DNA of 9,340 bases. Source: a virus (lineage: Duplodnaviria; Heunggongvirae; Uroviricota; Caudoviricetes). The notes under the pieces were generated by a model. It was given only the letters and a program-made list of their open reading frames with translations, did no database searches and was not told the DNA's origin. The position numbers and the translations under genes are program-made. The stretch's first letter is position 1; each line of letters opens with the position of its first letter. Below, in pieces: positions 1,147-9,340 of this stretch. The stretch is from the IMG/VR virus record IMGVR_UViG_3300000293_000239. One strand, 5' to 3'.

Positions 1147-1180
1147 AAAATTGGCCTCATTTGAGGCCAATTTTATTATG
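1147..1180 (+). terminator. Rho-independent terminator; perfect 13-bp palindrome AAAATTGGCCTCA-TT-TGAGGCCAATTTT followed by T-rich tract
   Basis: Arms 1147-1159 and 1162-1174 pair perfectly with a 2-nt loop; GC-rich core GGCCTC/GAGGCC; A-run upstream and TTTTATTAT downstream, so potentially bidirectional. Sits 6 nt after the stop of the 758..1141 gene. Confidence 0.7.
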
Positions 1181-1212
1181 CATTGTATTTAATTTCACCG
1201 TGCGGAAGCATT

Positions 1213-1556
1213 ACCCAATCATATGGTTCCGCGTATAAATTTTCGTTGATTTCGCGTCGCTGTGGGCTATGAGCCCTTGTGGTCTACTCCCTGTTTATCA
1301 AACAAAATGCAGCTAGTGCGCGTATTTTGTGGAATGTGGGGGCGCAGCTCCATCGTCAAATTATTACACAAGCCTAACGAATCACGGGGCAATGAAAAGT
1401 ATGGCTAAGATAGGCAGGTGCGGATACCTCTTTACTGCGTTTGTTATTACGCTCGGTATACGGTGAACGATATACGGGCAGGCAACGTTATCGCGACTGT
1501 TATCAATAATACGTTTCAGTTTGTCCTCGAACTACATCACAACCGGCTTGAAAACT
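1213..1556 (-). pseudogene. Decayed 3' fragment of a tyrosine integrase gene, paralogous to the intact integrase at 2719..3903
   Basis: Minus-strand translation gives EDKLKRIIDNSRDNVACPYIVHRIP..., LCNNLTMELRP, FHKIRALAA, FDKQGVDHKG and AHSDAKSTKIYTRNHMIG-stop in shifting frames. These match the intact integrase C-terminus (KRIIDNSRDNVASPFVVHRIP ... LCNHLAMEQRP ... FHEIRALAAHLFDKQGIDPQGRMAHSDAKSTKIYTKNH). Several frameshifts and in-frame stops; the N-terminal two thirds are missing. The 5' boundary (~1556) is approximate. Confidence 0.75.
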
Positions 1557-1624
1557 AATTACTGGATTTTGTGCCTCCATAATCATATGATTTAAAATGT
1601 TATTTTATAAAAAAGGAGTTGTAT

Positions 1625-2581
1625 ATGACCAATTTGTATAAGTTTATGGGAGCGGATATAATTGATAAATTGATGATGGATGAAACACATATAGGAATAA
1701 AATTCTCTCATTTACATGAATATAATGATCCCTATGAGTTTTTCCTTACTATTGATTTTAATCGCGGTTCTGATGAGTTAGCATTTTACAATGAAATGAT
1801 TGGCATGGTTACAAAACAACCAGCAACTTGTTTTACGAAAAGCCCTGTGATACCACCTATGTGGGCACATTATGCAGGTAATTCTTCTGGTTTTGTAATA
1901 GAGATTAATGAGGAGAAGTTTAAAAAGTATTTGGATGAAATCGGCTTCCAGGATCATAGTTCAATAGCAGATGTTGAATATAAAGATTCTCCAGATACAG
2001 GTATTGAAGACATTCTGGCGAGAGCATTTCATATCTGTAAACCTCGTTATATCTACTGGCTACAATCCTGTATAATGACAGCCGCATATTTGACAAAACA
2101 AACTTGCTGGAGTTATGAGCAGGAACGTCGCGTAATAATTAATGAGAAAGCACTTACTAAACTGAATGACAATCTTATGCTCCTTCCGGTACCGATTAAT
2201 TGTATAACTGGAGTTATAGTTGGGCACAAATCAAATGATTTATTAAAGCAGAAAATTCAATCTTTAGCTAAAAAGGCTAAATGTAGATATTTCGAAATGG
2301 TAATAGGAAAAACAACAACTACACCATTTCTTTTATCTCAAAATCTCAAATCACACCAATTTATTAATGGCAATATAATACCTGCATCAAGGCAATGTAA
2401 AAAATGTTATGAGCCTTTAAACATGGAAAATAAAGTTTGTGGCTGGTGTGGAATTACTAATCATGATGTGAAAATGGCAGAGTACCGTAATTCATTTCGA
2501 ATGATAGCCAACTATGGTGGGCTGGATAAATATATATCATCCATGAATAAGATTACTGAAGAGTATAATAAGGGTAAATAA
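1625..2581 (+). CDS. DUF2971-like protein with C-terminal CxxC-x13-CxxC zinc ribbon; candidate defence/abortive-infection protein
   Basis: ATG at 1625 preceded by AAGGAG (1613-1618); stop TAA 2579-2581; 318 aa. N-terminus NLYKF...KFSHLHEYNDPYEF resembles the LYKY...NDP.E signature I associate with DUF2971. C-terminal CKKCYEPLNMENKVCGWCG is a zinc-ribbon motif. The gene is visibly far more AT-rich than its neighbours, consistent with horizontal acquisition. Family assignment is from memory of the motif, not a search. Confidence 0.8.
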   Translation: MTNLYKFMGADIIDKLMMDETHIGIKFSHLHEYNDPYEFFLTIDFNRGSDELAFYNEMIGMVTKQPATCFTKSPVIPPMWAHYAGNSSGFVIEINEEKFKKYLDEIGFQDHSSIADVEYKDSPDTGIEDILARAFHICKPRYIYWLQSCIMTAAYLTKQTCWSYEQERRVIINEKALTKLNDNLMLLPVPINCITGVIVGHKSNDLLKQKIQSLAKKAKCRYFEMVIGKTTTTPFLLSQNLKSHQFINGNIIPASRQCKKCYEPLNMENKVCGWCGITNHDVKMAEYRNSFRMIANYGGLDKYISSMNKITEEYNKGK

Positions 2582-2718: not shown

Positions 2719-3903
2719 CTAACCGGTTTTAATTTCTCCATGAGGGACAACAATCCAATCTATATGATTTTTAGTATAAATTTTAGTAGATTTCGCATCG
2801 CTATGTGCCATTCGTCCCTGCGGATCAATCCCTTGTTTATCAAATAGGTGAGCTGCCAAAGCTCTTATTTCATGGAATGTAGGTCTTTGTTCCATTGCTA
2901 GATGATTGCATAGTCCGAGTTTGTCTCGCACGGAAGAGAATGACCGACTCAAATAATCTGGTGCAACTTGAGTTGGGTGCGAAACCTCTTTACTGCGTTT
3001 AACATGCCGTTCTGGGATTCTATGAACGACAAAGGGACTGGCCACATTGTCACGGCTATTGTCAATTATCCGTTTCAATTCTTCACCAATTGGTATTGCA
3101 ACATGTGATGCCTCCTTTTTTTGTACTTTTTGCCTATGGATGTATAGTGTACCATATATGCCATTTTGTGGTTGTTCGAACCAAACACATCCACATAAAC
3201 CGTCTTTAGGTTCGCGAATTGAGTAACGGATTCGCGATACTTCGAGTCGTGCATGTGTAGTCTGCAATGCTAGGTCCATTGCTGTTCTTAACCATGGTGC
3301 AGCGGCCTGCCTGATAGCTATAAAATGCTCGAGTGACAGGCGCCGTCTTTTCTTCTCATCAGTCCTACGCATTTTTTTTCTGATGGCCGGGTTATCCTGC
3401 ATTAGTGATTCATCGACCGCATAAGAGAACAACTTTTTAAGAAAGCTGACCTTTCTGTTCTGCACATTTGCGGATGCGCTGGCATGATATTTGTTGATGT
3501 AGGCATTAACGTGTTCAAGTTCGATATCGCATGCCGGAACATTTACGAAAAATGCTTTTACGCGTAGAGCGTCATTTTTCCAGTCATCTAAGGTACTCTG
3601 GGAAGGTCGTTCGTCTTCGATAATTCTGGCCATTATGTGATCGACATGTTCAGCAAATGGTTTTGCTTCTCCGGTGACCCCGCCAGATTCTCTAATAAGA
3701 TTATCCACTGATGGGTATAATTCTGATCGCATCCTCAGGTTGTACTCTCTGGCGATTGCAACGGCTATTGCCCGATCCTTACCTATATTTTTCTTTTTTC
3801 CGGTAATAAGTGTGAATTTATAAACACCTCGATCTTTATCAAAAACCAGATAATCAGGAAGATGTCTGTATTCTTTTTTACGTGGCCTTGCCGCCATGGT
3901 CAT
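2719..3903 (-). CDS. int: Tyrosine recombinase / phage integrase (lambda Int family)
   Basis: 394 aa. Contains the conserved catalytic-region hallmarks of tyrosine recombinases (R in ...THARLEVS..., H-x-x-R in FHEIRALAA, and Y in STKIYTKNH) and an N-terminal arm-binding-like basic region. Its ATG (3901-3903) overlaps the excisionase stop (ATGA). Confidence 0.95.
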   Translation of the reverse strand: MTMAARPRKKEYRHLPDYLVFDKDRGVYKFTLITGKKKNIGKDRAIAVAIAREYNLRMRSELYPSVDNLIRESGGVTGEAKPFAEHVDHIMARIIEDERPSQSTLDDWKNDALRVKAFFVNVPACDIELEHVNAYINKYHASASANVQNRKVSFLKKLFSYAVDESLMQDNPAIRKKMRRTDEKKRRRLSLEHFIAIRQAAAPWLRTAMDLALQTTHARLEVSRIRYSIREPKDGLCGCVWFEQPQNGIYGTLYIHRQKVQKKEASHVAIPIGEELKRIIDNSRDNVASPFVVHRIPERHVKRSKEVSHPTQVAPDYLSRSFSSVRDKLGLCNHLAMEQRPTFHEIRALAAHLFDKQGIDPQGRMAHSDAKSTKIYTKNHIDWIVVPHGEIKTG

Positions 3904-4109
3904 CCCTCATTTATTAACTTGCGAACAGCTTGACTAACCATTGAGTCGACTCCCCATTTTTCTGTTTCGCAGACAAAAACAGAACCGTCCACTATACGCC
4001 CCATGAGCAGACCGTTCTCGACCCAGCGTTTTATCGTTCGGTTGTCAGGAATTGAGCCATTAGAGAATTCACGGCGTCCCCATTGGCTCGCTTTCATTAG
4101 TTTTGCCAT
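3900..4109 (-). CDS. xis: Excisionase (Xis-like small DNA-binding protein)
   Basis: 69 aa from ATG 4107-4109, preceded by GGAG about 8 nt upstream; the ORF-track start at 4154 is a TTG with no better support. Position immediately upstream of and overlapping int; small basic protein with ...TIKRWVENGLL... resembling excisionase/MerR-like winged helix. Functional call rests on synteny plus general resemblance. Confidence 0.7.
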   Translation of the reverse strand: MAKLMKASQWGRREFSNGSIPDNRTIKRWVENGLLMGRIVDGSVFVCETEKWGVDSMVSQAVRKLINEG

Positions 4110-4170
4110 GGCTGTTTCTCCACTTAACCCGCTGCACACGGGCAGTAATATCAAATTTCAGTCCTGATAA

Positions 4171-4386
4171 TTAATTTTGTTCTCTGGTTGCTACCTGTTT
4201 AATTGGCCTGATGCTGTCCAGGAGCAGTCGGCGGCGCGTATTTTCTGCAAAGTGGCGGCGTCCGGTTTCTTTGTGGTAAAACTCGTTTTCTCCGACGACC
4301 CACATCCGCTTTGTCTGGTGCAGTTTTTTTACCTGCGGACCGTTTCGGGTAATAACAATTCCTGTATGAGTTTTTATCACGCTCAT
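4171..4386 (-). CDS. Small hypothetical prophage early protein (71 aa)
   Basis: ATG (4384-4386) overlaps the stop of the upstream DUF551-like gene (ATGA coupling); basic protein. No family recognised. Confidence 0.55.
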   Translation of the reverse strand: MSVIKTHTGIVITRNGPQVKKLHQTKRMWVVGENEFYHKETGRRHFAENTRRRLLLDSIRPIKQVATREQN

Positions 4387-4745
4387 TTCTTATTCTCCGG
4401 TGCTTTCGGCATTACTGCCCAGTGAGTAATATTGACGTTTTCAAGGTCCCCGACCTGAAATGTCCACTGCCATTCTCCGGTTTCTTTTTGTCCCCAGGTG
4501 TACCAGAGAGAACGCCAGCCAATTAGCCAGCCTTCTCCGTTAGCATCAAATAACAGAACACTTTCATTTGCAGGTGGCAGTTCAGCTGACACTGGTATTA
4601 TTTTGTTTTCCAGTGCCGCACATTTAGCTTCAAGCGCGTCGAATTTACGTACTAGGTACTCAGCATTTGTTTCGTTCACTTTCAGATCTCGCGGTACACA
4701 TTTCCCGCGAAGAAACCCTTCCATTTCGAAAACATTCATGCGCAT
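4383..4745 (-). CDS. DUF551-like prophage protein (YfdS-like by size and synteny)
   Basis: 120 aa; Trp-rich C-terminal region (GWLIGWRSLWYTWGQKETGEWQW) typical of DUF551 as I recall it. Start ATG 4743-4745 with GGAG upstream; the stop of the upstream HD gene overlaps its third codon. Confidence 0.7.
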   Translation of the reverse strand: MRMNVFEMEGFLRGKCVPRDLKVNETNAEYLVRKFDALEAKCAALENKIIPVSAELPPANESVLLFDANGEGWLIGWRSLWYTWGQKETGEWQWTFQVGDLENVNITHWAVMPKAPENKK

Positions 4746-5272
4746 TTGCGTAACTCCGATAACTCGTTAAAACGTTCCATAAACATCCCATAGGCATGGC
4801 CTGGCGACAGTGGAATCACTTTGAACATCTCTGTTGCCGGGATACCTTCCAGTACAGGCCAGAAAGAGCCATCATCAAGCCCGAGATCGCGGCGTTCGGT
4901 TGCCAGCATGATGAGATCGGCATATTTCACGGGCGTGCTCATAACCGGGGGTAACCCGTATTTCTCACGGATTACGGCGTCTATTTTTTCTTCCATCCGT
5001 TTATAGTCAGGAAGAAGGCGTTTCAGTGGAGCCGGGATGTCCTGGCAATACGCTTCTGTTGCATCATGCATTAACGCTTCAAAAGCAAATTCCTGCGGCA
5101 CCAGCATGCTGCAAAGAACCGCATGTTGGGCGACGCTGTAGAAGTGCGAAAGATGACCGGCAAAGCGACAGATATTTGAAAGGGAAACCGCGATATCGTT
5201 AATATCGATGTCGTCTTTATTTATCTTGTCATAATAAAAATGCTTCCCGGAAAAAGTTTTAATAAATGACAT
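4736..5272 (-). CDS. yfdR: HD-domain metal-dependent phosphohydrolase (5'-deoxynucleotidase-like, YfdR-like)
   Basis: 178 aa from ATG 5270-5272 with GGAG upstream (GTGGAGAATAAAATG); the ORF-track start at 5299 lacks an SD. H...HD motif (HLSHFYSVAQH ... ALMHDATEAY) typical of the HD superfamily. Size and sequence context match what I remember of E. coli prophage YfdR. Confidence 0.85.
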   Translation of the reverse strand: MSFIKTFSGKHFYYDKINKDDIDINDIAVSLSNICRFAGHLSHFYSVAQHAVLCSMLVPQEFAFEALMHDATEAYCQDIPAPLKRLLPDYKRMEEKIDAVIREKYGLPPVMSTPVKYADLIMLATERRDLGLDDGSFWPVLEGIPATEMFKVIPLSPGHAYGMFMERFNELSELRKCA

Positions 5273-5399
5273 TTTATTCTCCACGTATATGCACTGCACC
5301 GCGCTGAATTCTGGTAAAAGGAAGCCCTCACCATCCGGTGATTATTGAGTTAATTACGTTTCCATAAATGCCCCCGCAGGGGCATTTGCAGTAATGAAA

Positions 5400-6224
5400 T
5401 CAGGCGGTGAAAGTACCAATAAAGGTTTCTACTTTGCTGTCTTTGAATTTCTCAACAAGCAGATCACGAAATTCGTTAGCCATTTCTTCCTGCACCGCTT
5501 CCAGCTGAATAATGCGCAGAACCAGTACAGGACGATCGCCAGTGATAATGCTGAGGCGTAATTTAAACGGACGTTCTTTCAGACCTTCAAACGGAACGCA
5601 TTTAAATTCAAATGCCACAGGCATAATGTCTTTGGTCTTCGCTTCGACAGACTCCATCAGGGAGCGTTTGCCGCTGAAGTCATTATCTTCAAAATCAGCG
5701 GTCTGGTTCGCTTCAATTGTGATTTTACGGATCGCCGCAGCAGCTTTGGTTGCCTGAATGGCGTCACCATTAGCATCAAAGCCCACAAGGTAGTCGGCCC
5801 AGTCTTCAATCCATTCTGCCAGTGACTTCTGGGAGTTACGCTCGCCGTTAACAGACAACAGGGCAGAGAACGGTGCTGTCTTTTTCAGTTTGAGAGTGGC
5901 GGTGTTATCTGCGTGACCTGGTTCATCAATAGTACCCAGGTTAAGCACACTGACGGCACGCATATTATCAGCATCGATAAAGCAGCGGGTGCCTTCATCT
6001 GCAAGATCTTTAGAATAACGGGTAAAGTCATCGATGCTGGCAGTGGAAAGCGCACCACGGAAACGGAAGCGATTTAAATTAAATTTTTCCAGATCATGAA
6101 TGCGGAAATTCTCAGGCAATGCCACAGCATCGGCACCAATCTTACTGATAATTTCATTAACACCCTGAGCAGAAATAAGGGCATGGATTTGATTAATTGC
6201 GGTTGCGTCTAAGTTCTGAGACAT
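5400..6224 (-). CDS. yfdQ: DUF2303 family protein (YfdQ-like)
   Basis: 274 aa; ATG 6222-6224 preceded by GAGGA; position upstream of the HD gene as in the yfdP-yfdQ-yfdR-yfdS cluster of E. coli prophage CPS-53/KplE1 (from memory). Confidence 0.8.
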
Positions 6225-6288
6225 AATCAGTCCTCACTATATAAAATATTCAGTGATGAGATAAATAATCAGTTAATTAAAAACGATA

Positions 6289-6651
6289 TTAATGACCTGC
6301 TGCGCGGAGTTTTCCGTCAGGTTCACCGGCAAGAGTCAGTAATTGTCCCTGGTCTTCCTGCAGAATAGTCAGGCGACCACCGCGATTGACATACATCGGT
6401 GTTTCGGTGGTGTCTTCTTCGGAAATTTTCCCGCGGTTAGTCGGGCGAACATATGAGAGTTTATGTTTTATTTTCACACGGTTCTCATCAAACGGTTCGA
6501 TTTCCAGGTTGAGCGAGACCTTACCTTTGGTTTTCGTGTTCATCACACCGGAAGCGACTTCACTGAGAACTGCGCCGATTTTGGTTTCAAATACGCCGCC
6601 GTCCAGCTCCCCGATAAATGCCTGCACATCAGTACTGCGTTCGCTAGCCAT
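6289..6651 (-). CDS. Hypothetical prophage protein, 120 aa (YfdP-like by size and synteny)
   Basis: The ORF track extends this frame to 6969, but the only start with a ribosome-binding site is ATG 6649-6651 (GAGGAGCAGCAAA-ATG). The upstream extension runs through a GC-rich, stop-poor structured region and is low-complexity. Confidence 0.7.
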   Translation of the reverse strand: MASERSTDVQAFIGELDGGVFETKIGAVLSEVASGVMNTKTKGKVSLNLEIEPFDENRVKIKHKLSYVRPTNRGKISEEDTTETPMYVNRGGRLTILQEDQGQLLTLAGEPDGKLRAAGH

Positions 6652-6699
6652 TTTGCTGCTCCTCATCATATCGACCCTGCAAGGTCGGTTGGTTTCTCC

Positions 6700-6788
6700 A
6701 CAAAACAGAGAAGAACACCTGCGGTGGCAGCCGCCCGGATGGATTGGGTTATGAGCCCGTCGTCCGGTGATGCTCTTCTCTGTTTTGT
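6700..6788. repeat. Perfect 15-bp inverted repeat (ACAAAACAGAGAAGA / TCTTCTCTGTTTTGT) separated by a 59-nt GC-rich spacer
   Basis: Arms at 6700-6714 and 6774-6788 are exact reverse complements. Lies in the 5' leader of the leftward early genes; the right arm overlaps the U-tract of the adjacent minus-strand terminator. Confidence 0.6.
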
Positions 6789-6834
6789 AAAAAGAGCGGT
6801 ACCAGCCGGAAGCAAGGGTACAAACTGGTACCGC
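6786..6834 (-). terminator. Candidate intrinsic terminator for leftward transcription (10-bp GC-rich stem GCGGTACCAG/CTGGTACCGC, 19-nt loop, then UCUUUUUACA on the minus strand)
   Basis: Stem arms at 6796-6805 and 6825-6834 are perfect complements; on the minus strand the hairpin is followed by TCTTTTTACA (complement of 6786-6795). The loop is larger than in typical terminators. Confidence 0.45.
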
Positions 6835-7088
6835 CAGGACTACACACAGCATAAAGTTGTGGTGCCGGGTGCCTCCCGGTGCCTGGCGAAGGTTGCACAC
6901 CAGACGGGTGGGTATCCACAGAAGGTCGACTGTCAGCCTCAACCTTAACCCGCGTGCGCTGAGCCGCATTCACCACAACGCTAAGGATTCTCTCTGGTTG
7001 AAAATACTTAGCTGTTATGTGCCTGTCTTTTCACCACTTCAGGCTCGGTGGTATCCTTTTAAGCCCGTATACATAAAAGGAAAATCAA

Positions 7089-7535: not shown

Positions 7536-7721
7536 TTAACCTCCAGATTTCCGCGCATCTAAAGGCGCATTCTCATTTGGTGTGAACTGAATAGTTGTGC
7601 TGATATTGATTAATGCTCCGACACACAAGACTACGCACTCAGAGCAGATAGCAACTTCATCTTTTCCGCCTTTGGCGATGATTTTTTTGCCTGCAGCTCG
7701 TTTGCGCCACAAAACGAGCAT
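7536..7721 (-). CDS. Questionable small basic ORF (61 aa), first ORF downstream of the putative pL
   Basis: No Shine-Dalgarno sequence; the start codon is embedded at the edge of an 8-bp stem / 8-nt loop hairpin (7696-7719). Position corresponds to where N-like antiterminators sit in lambdoid phages, but I see no arginine-rich motif match I can defend. Confidence 0.25.
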   Translation of the reverse strand: MLVLWRKRAAGKKIIAKGGKDEVAICSECVVLCVGALINISTTIQFTPNENAPLDARKSGG

Positions 7722-7839: not shown

Positions 7840-7910
7840 AAATCTAACTTAACTTAGTTATTATGGCAAGAGAAAACACCAAACTTTTCTTAGTTCGGTG
7901 CCTTAGTTAG
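7840..7910 (-). promoter_or_regulatory. Putative OL/pL region: leftward promoter (-35 TTGCCA, 17-nt spacer, -10 TAGATT on the minus strand) overlapped by operator repeats
   Basis: 11-bp palindrome TAACTTAGTTA (7850-7860) lies in the spacer between the candidate -35 and -10. Further CTTAGTT copies at 7889-7895 and 7902-7908. Located just downstream of the repressor gene, as OL/pL is in lambdoid phages. Promoter hexamers are by-eye matches. Confidence 0.5.
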
Positions 7911-7922
7911 AGAAGAGAGGTC

Positions 7923-8549
7923 TTAGAGTTCGTATTGAACTCCTTTGACTACACCAATGATAAGGCAATTACCATTGATAGGGATGTTGGGATACCGAGG
8001 ATTTAATGGCACTAAAAACTTTTGAGGGCCATCGATGACTAATTTTTTTACTGTAGCTTCGTTTGTTCCATCAAGTCGAGCGATGACTATTTTTCCATGA
8101 CGAGGTTCTGCATCTGGATCTACAATCACTGTTGCGCCTTCTGGTATTGTTGGGAGGCCATTAGGGTTAGTCATGGAGTCACCTTTAACCTCTAATGCAA
8201 ATGAGTTATCACCAATCTTTAATGATGTATCTACCCACTTGTCCACTTCACTAAACACTTCTGCTGCCCTGCACTCAGTAAACTGCCCAGCCTGAACCCA
8301 CGATATTACAGGAACTCTGCGCATGTTTGTGACGAGTTTGCCTTCAAACTCAGCACCATAAAGAATGTAATCTATTGACGTATTGAAGAACTTCGCTAAT
8401 TTCGAAAGTGCCTCCCCACCAGGGGTATTGATGTCTTTCTCCCAGTACCCCACAGCAACGTCGCTTACTCCACAAAATTTACCCAATTCTTTCTGGGACG
8501 TTCTGGTAACTCTTCTCAGAGCTTTTATACGCTGACCAACCGTTTCCAT
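7923..8549 (-). CDS. cI: CI-like prophage repressor (N-terminal HTH_XRE domain + C-terminal LexA/S24 peptidase-like autocleavage domain)
   Basis: 208 aa. N-terminal helix-turn-helix (QKELGKFCGVSDVAVGYWEKD), C-terminal S24-like region with GDSM serine motif and downstream lysine (KKLV). Divergent from a cro-like gene across an operator-bearing intergenic region. No SD upstream of its ATG (possible leaderless transcript). Confidence 0.9.
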   Translation of the reverse strand: METVGQRIKALRRVTRTSQKELGKFCGVSDVAVGYWEKDINTPGGEALSKLAKFFNTSIDYILYGAEFEGKLVTNMRRVPVISWVQAGQFTECRAAEVFSEVDKWVDTSLKIGDNSFALEVKGDSMTNPNGLPTIPEGATVIVDPDAEPRHGKIVIARLDGTNEATVKKLVIDGPQKFLVPLNPRYPNIPINGNCLIIGVVKGVQYEL

Positions 8550-8646: not shown

Positions 8647-8847
8647 ATGACAACTGACGATATCGAAAGCTACTTCGGCAGTATTGAGAAAGTTGCTGCT
8701 TTTTTCGGCATAACAACTGAAGCCGTTTATCAGTGGCGAAACCGTCCGGGCCAGTTAATTCCAAAAGGACGTGCAGCAGAAGCTGCATATAGAACTTGCG
8801 GACGGTTGCCATTTAAACCTGAGCTTTATGAAAAATCTAATGGATAA
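8647..8847 (+). CDS. cro: Cro-like small HTH regulator
   Basis: 66 aa; strong SD (GGAGGG) 5 nt upstream of ATG 8647; divergent from the CI-like repressor; HTH-like segment (IEKVAAFFGITTEAVYQWRN). The antisense ORF 8621..8812 is rejected. Confidence 0.75.
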   Translation: MTTDDIESYFGSIEKVAAFFGITTEAVYQWRNRPGQLIPKGRAAEAAYRTCGRLPFKPELYEKSNG

Positions 8848-9340
8848 ATCGATTAACAGAAACCACAGAACGATGAGGCTAACCGTGGGTAAGCATCACT
8901 GGAAAGTAGAAAAACAGCCTGAGTGGTACGTGAAAGCTGTCAGAAAAACTATCGCAAAGTTGCCGGGTGGTTACGCTGAAGCAGCTGACTGGCTGGATGT
9001 AACAGAGAACGCATTATTTAACCGCCTTCGTGCTGATGGCGATCAGATTTTCCCGCTGGGATGGGCAATGATTTTGCAACGTGCTGGTGGAACTCACTTC
9101 ATTGCTGATGCTGTGGCGCAGTCTGCAAATGGCGTCTTTGTGTCTCTTCCTGACGTCGAGGATGTGGACAACGCCGATATTAACCAGCGTCTGCTGGAAG
9201 TCATTGAACAGATCGGCAGTTATTCAAAACAGATTCGTTCAGCAATCGAAGACGGTGTAGTGGAACCGCATGAGAAGACAGCAATTACTGGTTTTTACAG
9301 TTGCTCGATAAAGTCACGCCCTCACAGTGGGCGGCAATAG
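8840..9340 (+). CDS. CII-like phage regulatory protein (resembles the phage CII/CP76 family as I recall it)
   Basis: Open frame from 8771 to TAG 9338-9340. Start is ambiguous: GTG 8771, ATG 8828 or ATG 8840. I chose ATG 8840, which overlaps the cro-like stop (8845-8847), as a coupled start. Position immediately after cro matches cII. Family call is from memory of sequence style, not a search. Confidence 0.6.
   Translation: MDKSINRNHRTMRLTVGKHHWKVEKQPEWYVKAVRKTIAKLPGGYAEAADWLDVTENALFNRLRADGDQIFPLGWAMILQRAGGTHFIADAVAQSANGVFVSLPDVEDVDNADINQRLLEVIEQIGSYSKQIRSAIEDGVVEPHEKTAITGFYSCSIKSRPHSGRQ

Follow-up and report, generated by a model that had tools for sequence, protein, structure and literature searches.

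The yfdP-yfdQ-yfdR-yfdS module within the early-left region of a lambda-like prophage without a recognisable Rec module

The window (the whole stretch of viral DNA analysed, 9,340 nucleotides) carries a lambdoid early-left region in the genomic position that lambda fills with exo, bet, gam, kil and cIII (b2-proximal), and searches among its ORFs of at least 40 aa gave no counterpart of Red, Kil or cIII. This raises the question of which genes stand there instead and what they do for the phage. A preliminary description, made from the letters of the sequence, had proposed a yfdP/yfdQ/yfdR/yfdS-like module, and comparison with the Escherichia coli K-12 cryptic prophage CPS-53 (KplE1) bears this out. 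By BLASTP the identity is 99.2% for YfdP (120/120 residues), 99.6% for YfdQ, 97.2% for YfdR and 100% for YfdS across residues 1-117 of 120, and the sizes given in that description (120, 274, 178 and 120 aa) are right. The same four genes occur in K-12 with the same order and sizes, and K-12 yfdP-yfdS DNA is 97.4% identical to positions 4395-6670. In RefSeq, identical loci bear the same yfdP/yfdQ/yfdR/yfdS annotation. Judged by these identities, the genes make up the same lambdoid-phage accessory module, yfdP-yfdQ-yfdR-yfdS, as in CPS-53 (Table 1). The module is present at 97-100% identity in 3,098 of 5,426 (57%) complete E. coli genomes, decayed remnants such as K-12 included.

Table 1. Features of the early-left region, with positions in the window.
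Feature	Position	Strand	Description
Small HTH-like ORF, putative excisionase	3900..4109	-	overlaps the int start; assigned from position and size
71-aa ORF	4171..4386	-	phrog_1226, E 5e-40
yfdS	4383..4745	-	120 aa; DUF551 is the C-terminal half
yfdR	4736..5272	-	178 aa from ATG; the ORF list runs to a GTG at 5299
Hairpin in yfdQ-yfdR spacer	5366..5387	-	9-bp, GC-rich, aaatgcccc-tgcg-ggggcattt, no U-tract; read from the sequence
yfdQ	5400..6224	-	274 aa, DUF2303
yfdP	6289..6651	-	120 aa; start is an internal ATG of a 226-aa ORF
Structured leader upstream of yfdP	6690..7009	-	STnc100-like RNA, terminator-like stem and U-run, then a second long hairpin
Candidate pL-type promoter	7841..7869	-	TTGCCA-17-TAGATT, from a consensus scan; shortly downstream of the gene for the cI-like repressor

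The genes had also been described as tightly coupled through ATGA overlaps. This applies to the yfdR/yfdS/71-aa ORF junctions, but not to yfdP-yfdQ and yfdQ-yfdR, which are separated by gaps of 64 nt and 127 nt, respectively. Both tetranucleotides exist: the one at 4383-4386 forms the yfdS/71-aa ORF junction, but at 4736-4739 the annotated YfdS start is the ATG at 4745, giving a 10-nt overlap with yfdR instead.

Regarding protein families, the proposed DUF2303, HD and DUF551 memberships are all supported. YfdQ matches DUF2303 (PF10065) over its full length, scoring 311 bits where the cut-off is 26.6 (E 6e-93; residues 7-272 on profile positions 2-269 of 269). YfdS passes the DUF551 threshold (PF04448) marginally, with 22.2 bits against 22 (residues 50-117 on positions 3-68 of 68). 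YfdP belongs to the 'YfdP family phage-associated protein' of NCBI (PF27127) by its K-12 identity and its position directly upstream of yfdQ; the PF27127 assignment was taken from precomputed annotations on all YfdP homologues, the model being absent from the Pfam set searched here. YfdR matches phrog_318 (E 3e-110) and PDB entry 2gz4 (Atu1052; E 5e-14), in which all three parts of the HD motif align. The H...HD...D motif of the HD superfamily is found at H50, H69-D70 and D119, and homologues conserve these residues as well as E73 and D78.

The relation of YfdR to E. coli YfbR, a dCMP phosphohydrolase, is more distant. The block of catalytic residues H-D-x-x-E-x4-D-x-P-x-P-x-K is shared by both proteins, as is the VK.AD motif downstream of it, and HD, E73, D78 and D119 are common to YfdR and K-12 YfbR in a MAFFT alignment. 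However, the overall identity is only about 22%, and pairwise BLASTP (E 9e-5) backs the HD..E..D block only. The YfbR-like HD family of Pfam (PF12917) scores 22.7 bits, below its cut-off of 25.9, and the NCBIfam equivalog PRK03826 scores 18.2 against a cut-off of 122. The RefSeq product name of K-12 yfdR is 5'-deoxynucleotidase; the protein is a weak dNMP phosphohydrolase according to Zimmerman 2008, as cited in PMC4776307, with a nucleotide affinity much lower than that of YfbR (PMC4776307). By sequence, the gene product in the window is a YfdR orthologue, a distant paralogue rather than an equivalog of YfbR, and is classified as an HD-domain 5'-deoxynucleotidase-like protein.

The HD superfamily includes cyclic-nucleotide and (d)NTP hydrolases, and an HD protein in an early phage operon might, alone or with its neighbours, counter host defence by degrading nucleotide second messengers or by depleting nucleotides that host immunity uses; a weak secondary match of YfdR to phrog_7076, 'dATP triphosphohydrolase' (E 1.6e-4), points the same way. 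We consider this reading improbable: the pattern of the active-site block, HD..E....D.P.P.K, is that of YfbR-type monophosphatases, the K-12 orthologue carries the annotation 5'-deoxynucleotidase, and a literature search gave no support. PADLOC returned no match for any of the module proteins. Action of the HD enzyme on defence second messengers is pure speculation.

Outside the four genes, the window and K-12 diverge. CPS-53 continues with yfdT-ypdJ-torI. The window has the 71-aa ORF, and its xis-like gene and integrase are not those of K-12, the integrase being 31% identical to IntS over 52 residues. The 71-aa ORF occupies the position of yfdT/ypdJ in K-12 and has no similarity to YfdT; among near-identical loci (E. 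coli copies among viral contigs), this ORF or YfdT alternates at the position after yfdS, indicating mosaicism distal to yfdS. Upstream of yfdP, K-12 has neither the leader nor the small early ORFs nor the cI/cro region, and homology ends 19 nt upstream of that gene, in agreement with the earlier view of the K-12 copy as a remnant. In the window, int adjoins the xis-like ORF, cI, cro and cII are present, and a 99.6%-identical locus in an ST131 strain is part of a complete prophage, L090, of about 43 kb (43.8 kb). The apparently intact int-xis context is upheld to this extent, the xis-like ORF having a weak match to the DUF4817 HTH domain (E 0.0045), a RefSeq name of hypothetical protein and no match in PHROGs. 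In mEp460, SfV, SfIV and Stx2c-converting phages, 84-98% of positions 4100-7000 is covered at 95-98% DNA identity; their int/xis and immunity flanks differ from those of the window, again a mosaic pattern. The SfV genes orf29-31 had already been noted as YfdQRST homologues (PMC4776307).

The preliminary description had found no recognisable recombination or kil genes, and systematic searches agree. Kil, Gam, RecT, Exo, Erf and SSB were not detected by Pfam or PHROGs among the early-left ORFs or by tblastn in the window, and no homologues of lambda Red, Gam, Kil or cIII were found among ORFs of at least 40 aa between xis and pL. Queried with RecT, Erf, Exo, Gam, SSB and Kil, the whole of L090 gave no tblastn match, and its annotation lists RusA only. 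This absence is already published as a class feature: 'no Rec module' phages make up 22% of a lambdoid panel (Genome Research 2025, PMC12315714), and those of the LLS functional type, as well as ST64B and relatives, have the same yfdR(yfbR)/yfdQ/yfdP early-left operon without SSAP, exonuclease, Gam or SSB. The class also has many Chi sites, as does L090, with 16 in 43.8 kb, of which 13 lie in one orientation and 11 of these within the early-right region; the 9.3-kb window holds a single Chi, at 9083-9090. Since its early-left operon has no gene for an SSAP, an exonuclease, an anti-RecBCD protein or SSB, and Chi is abundant and co-oriented in L090, the prophage is assigned by its sequence to this class. 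It differs in two additional genes, the one for DUF551 and the 71-aa ORF, and identity between the proteins of ST64B and those of the window is only 57-68%. The observation is thus correct but already known, the genes being named in RefSeq and both their one known activity and the Rec-less class being published; we regard the finding itself as ordinary, since the gene set is well annotated and occurs in over half of the complete E. coli genomes, and the class has been described before.

Regarding expression, a structured leader precedes yfdP. Its STnc100-like part (6787-7009) scores 44.6 bits with Rfam RF02076, just under the gathering score of 47 (E 3e-7), and the fold has a z-score of -4.8; the ST64B yfdP homologue has a partial match to it upstream. 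The candidate pL is a position-based assignment only, because the region contains seven promoter-like sites where 6.8 are expected from shuffled sequences. Since the terminator-like leader lies between this putative pL and yfdP, and no N-like antiterminator was recognised, expression of the module from pL is putative.

What the module does is best approached through the K-12 proteins. As the preliminary description had stated, YfdR binds DnaA and overexpression of the cluster inhibits initiation (Noguchi & Katayama 2016, PMC4776307). In that work, YfdR bound domain I of DnaA, involving Phe46; multicopy yfdQ and yfdR with either yfdS or yfdT inhibited initiation at oriC in vivo, and extracts oversupplied with YfdQRST inhibited initiation in vitro. 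By analogy, the 97-100% identity would carry the role of DnaA-binding inhibitor over to the present module, which encodes YfdS but not YfdT, yfdQRS being sufficient in K-12. We favour, with a probability of roughly 0.55, the explanation that the Yfd module is an early-left (pL-side) unit of a Rec-less lambda-like prophage that restrains initiation of the host chromosome in lytic growth. The module would be expressed early in lytic growth and hold back host initiation to the benefit of phage replication; dNMP pools might be adjusted as well, and phage recombination would proceed via host RecBCD at the many Chi sites of the phage. Lambda P has a comparable proposed outcome, restrained host initiation, but no sequence relationship, and it binds domain III of DnaA rather than domain I (PMC4776307). 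The inhibition was seen only on overexpression, initiation was unaffected when yfdQRST was deleted, and the authors of the study themselves concede a possible artefact (PMC4776307). An intact, probably inducible prophage with these genes would be a better system than the K-12 remnant for testing restraint of host initiation in lytic growth.

Alternatively, the module could mainly serve the lysogen, as a stress-tolerance function expressed from the prophage and not in the lytic cycle. Deletions of CPS-53, yfdQ or yfdS lower tolerance to H2O2, acid or MMS, as far as Wang 2010 and Rooney 2009 are represented in PMC4776307; multicopy yfdQRS/T increases hydroxyurea resistance (PMC4776307); and the module is kept at near identity in the E. 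coli genomes counted above, K-12-like remnants among them. This is unlikely in our judgement, as the stress phenotypes are weak, the genes of the intact prophage lie within a repressed early-left unit behind the terminator-like leader, and the YfdP-YfdQ pair is conserved, too, in podophages of Xanthomonas and Vibrio that appear to be virulent.

The pair itself suggests a limit to the replication-control reading. As yfdP is dispensable for the initiation-inhibition phenotype (PMC4776307) yet is the tightest-linked partner of yfdQ, the DnaA story may not be the pair's core function. In 78 of 79 genome loci, the gene directly upstream of YfdQ is that for YfdP, and the pairing recurs in all six diverse phages compared. 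Counting further against a DnaA role as the core of the pair, it occurs without any HD gene in about one quarter of the genome loci and in four of the six phages. It is conserved in enteric lambdoid prophages as well as in phages of Xanthomonas, Vibrio, Pseudomonas and Thalassomonas, in each case with replication or recombination genes around it, and it is among the most widespread Enterobacterales prophage gene pairs.

In place of Red/Gam, YfdP and YfdQ could form an unrecognised system for recombination or DNA-end handling, such as an annealing protein, an end protector or a RecBCD modulator. This would suit a phage that has no Rec module, the embedding of the pair among SSB, exonuclease, Erf or RecT genes in other phages, and the weak MMS and H2O2 sensitivity of a K-12 yfdQ deletion, as cited in PMC4776307. 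It would also suit PDB entry 9O7M, matched by sequence and absent from the fold libraries, which holds 36 chains of a YfdQ homologue, reminiscent of ring- or filament-forming annealing proteins; we found no paper mentioning this apparently unpublished entry. The pair is also found together with full Rec modules, and its folds are unlike those of SSAPs; on these grounds we rejected a hidden recombinase as the best explanation, and give it little chance. Neither YfdP nor YfdQ matched any known fold. The authors of PMC12315714 likewise argue that yfdR/yfdQ/yfdP are not hidden recombinases.

The 36 chains hint that YfdQ probably forms a large oligomer, and YfdP and YfdQ probably act as a unit. The YfdP tail (residues ~85-105) is disordered yet conserved. 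Rather unlikely, in our judgement, is a distinct phage machine made of this pair, a new end-binding or replication-takeover complex for instance, with DNA or the host replication apparatus as its target, YfdR as an optional effector and DnaA binding as a side view of the real function. Partner counts add a minor new observation, next to the missing fold matches and entry 9O7M. YfdR is found downstream of YfdQ in 57 of 74 loci (adjacent in 50, further down in seven), and YfdS in only six of the 74 genome loci with yfdQ. Next to the almost invariant pair of YfdP and YfdQ, the HD gene is thus common and the DUF551 gene rare.

The window corresponds to the left arm of a lambda-like E. coli prophage; the table gives its layout. 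All of the ORFs noticed in the preliminary description were found, with their sizes and both ATGA junctions, although the yfdR/yfdS overlap is 10 nt, not 4, if the annotated YfdS start is used. BLASTP against the K-12 cryptic prophage CPS-53 gave identities of 99.2% for YfdP, 99.6% for YfdQ, 97.2% for YfdR and 100% for YfdS (across 117 of 120 residues), and the DNA from 4395 to 6670 is 97.4% identical; the identity of the module with the Yfd genes is certain. Pfam searches detected DUF2303 (E = 6e-93), with DUF551 barely over its cut-off and the YfbR-like HD family barely under it.

Features of the window, with positions in nucleotides
Feature	Position	Strand	Remark
Islet left of the integrase	1-1560
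Second integrase, remnant	~1176-1525		frameshifted partial gene in RefSeq
DUF2971 protein	1619-2581	+	320 aa, adjoins integrase
Tyrosine integrase	2719-3903	-
Putative xis	3900-4109	-	small, HTH-like
71-aa ORF	4171-4386	-
yfdS	4383-4745	-
yfdR	4736-5272	-
Spacer hairpin	5366-5387	-	between yfdQ and yfdR
yfdQ	5400-6224	-
yfdP	6289-6651	-
Structured GC-rich leader	6690-7009	-	upstream of yfdP
Convergent ORF, 81 aa	7089-7334	+	83-nt overlap with next
Convergent ORF, 91 aa	7252-7527	-
Two small ORFs, 41 and 61 aa	7536-7756	-	just downstream of putative pL, before the leader
Candidate pL promoter	7869-7841	-
cI-like S24/HTH repressor	7923-8549	-
cro	8647-8847	+	diverges from repressor
cII-like gene	8771-end	+	diverges from repressor

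The tight coupling proposed for the set is not uniform, as spacers of 64 and 127 nt are also present. The longer one, which is 127 nt in K-12 too, contains a 9-bp GC-rich hairpin between yfdQ and yfdR (perfect stem aaatgcccc/ggggcattt, loop tgcg, without a U-tract) that could serve in RNA processing or stability, or as a partial terminator. The 71-aa ORF is a member of phrog_1226 and showed no relationship to YfdT. In a set of 80 near-identical IMG/VR loci the position beyond yfdS is mosaic, holding YfdT and YpdJ, the phrog_1226 ORF, both, or neither; since either YfdS or YfdT was enough for the K-12 phenotype, the variants may not be functionally equivalent.

YfdR aligns with PDB 2gz4 (Atu1052) in all three motif parts (E = 5e-14) and with K-12 YfbR, by pairwise BLASTP, in the block HD-x2-E-x4-D-x-P-x-P-x-K (E = 9e-5). 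Its homologues show little or no variation at H50, H69-D70, E73, D78 and D119, and the HD assignment, which the preliminary description had staked on conservation of the HD motif residues, therefore stands. Anti-defence nucleotide hydrolysis is one rival explanation of the module.

The yfdQRST genes were isolated as a multicopy suppressor of hda-185, which required yfdQ, yfdR and either yfdS or yfdT, with yfdP dispensable (Noguchi & Katayama 2016, PMC4776307). Deletion of the yfd genes left initiation unaffected, and the authors suggested, by analogy with lambda P, a possible role in the ancestral phage (PMC4776307). The mechanism with the best support is an early function in host takeover, in which YfdR, by binding DnaA, would restrain initiation at oriC, with YfdQ and YfdS as its cofactors. 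We hold it with moderate confidence, because it is based on overexpression data and leaves unexplained why the constant partner of YfdQ is YfdP and not YfdR. A stress benefit to the lysogen is another rival reading.

The present analysis adds that YfdP and YfdQ are a nearly obligate pair. In 78 of 79 loci, which come from about 75 bacterial species, YfdP lies directly upstream of YfdQ, and its homologues (34-61% identity) have the same position in six phages: CP2 (Xanthomonas), ST64B, ArgO145, BA3 (Thalassomonas), Vibrio phage 24E35.2 and Pseudomonas phage LPPA56. The HD gene follows the pair in 57 of 74 loci and the DUF551 gene is found in just six of the 74. AF2 models of YfdQ (pLDDT 78) and YfdP (pLDDT 70) gave no significant fold match; that of YfdP consists of one long helix and a sheet of three strands, with a conserved tail for which disorder is predicted. 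By sequence only, the entry 9O7M ('YfdQ Protein'), absent from the fold libraries, was matched in the PDB sequence file; it has 36 identical chains of a 274-aa YfdQ homologue from a CP2-like Xanthomonas podophage, 98.8% identical to a product of Xanthomonas phage MET23-P3, and suggests that YfdQ forms or joins a very large assembly. We found no associated paper in the literature searched.

In other phages the neighbours of the pair are SSB, DnaQ-like, Erf, RecT or exonuclease genes, and a further rival explanation is a hidden DNA-handling system. Homologues of yfbR, yfdQ and yfdP are named among the common early-left genes of lambdoid phages, 22% of which have no Rec module, and a role as hidden recombinases was argued to be unlikely because ArgO145 carries this cluster together with a full Rec module (Genome Research 2025, PMC12315714). 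The reported lack of recognisable recombination and kil genes was borne out: no early-left ORF matched a recombination family in Pfam, NCBIfam or PHROGs, and tblastn with RecT, Erf, two exonucleases, Gam, Kil and three SSBs, queries including proteins of other YfdQ-carrying phages, found no match in the window or in the full prophage of ST131 strain 4224. Observation and interpretation are confirmed and supported, respectively, and both halves of the finding were already in print (PMC4776307, PMC12315714).

The ST131 prophage differs from the window by 41 mismatches across 9340 nt. It is ~43 kb long, is flanked by a yejO remnant and tRNA-Pro, and has full sets of lysis, head and tail genes; its sole recombination-related gene is rusA. 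The phage to which the module belongs here would borrow host RecBCD/Chi for recombination. There are 16 Chi sites in the 43.8 kb, 13 in the same orientation. Eleven co-oriented sites lie within ~11 kb of the early-right operon (10470-21267 of the prophage locus), the first being 9083-9090 of the window; these numbers and this clustering agree with the class of Chi-rich, Rec-less lambdoid phages in the literature.

Megablast of 4100-7000 matched 3098 of 5426 complete E. coli genomes, 1557 of them with at least 80% coverage, and RefSeq names the genes there yfdP, yfdQ, yfdR (5'-deoxynucleotidase) and yfdS. Phages mEp460, SfV, SfIV and Stx2c-converting phages carry the same DNA at 95-98% identity.

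Over its full length the leader matches Rfam STnc100 (RF02076) with 44.6 bits, short of the gathering score of 47 (E = 3e-7), and has a fold z-score of -4.8; it ends in a terminator-like stem and U-run (~6795-6835), after which comes a second long hairpin (~6700-6790). The ST64B yfdP homologue is also preceded by a partial STnc100 match, and STnc100 is related to the prophage sRNA PasD (2026 preprint). The 'frameshifted hypothetical protein' of RefSeq across the leader is probably spurious.

The 41-aa and 61-aa ORFs are halves of one gene, which is split by a frameshift at a run of seven A (A7, 7682-7688). With A8 they would give a 67-aa protein (MNRYFTCSFCG...ICSECV...) of the ClpX C4 zinc-finger family (41 bits; cut-off 27). 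A8 occurs in four related loci from distinct genomes, and A7 in the window, one IMG/VR locus and the ST131 genome (counted once). In the window the gene may be a pseudogene, or its split may stem from a slippage site or from an assembly error; as the first early-left gene, a mimic of the ClpX zinc finger would be intriguing.

Each convergent ORF strongly matches its own PHROG family (81 aa, E = 1e-55; 91 aa, E = 1e-62), and RefSeq annotates only the plus-strand one. The DUF2971 protein gave a match to PDC-S31, a candidate defence family in PADLOC (E = 4e-22), and may be the product of a defence gene carried by the phage or the islet. The islet encodes a 255-aa protein with weak TPR matches, overlapped by a 144-aa ORF in which an R-x6-H (HEPN-like) motif was spotted by eye only; with its integrase remnant, the islet resembles an older, now decayed insertion at the same site (yejO/proL region).
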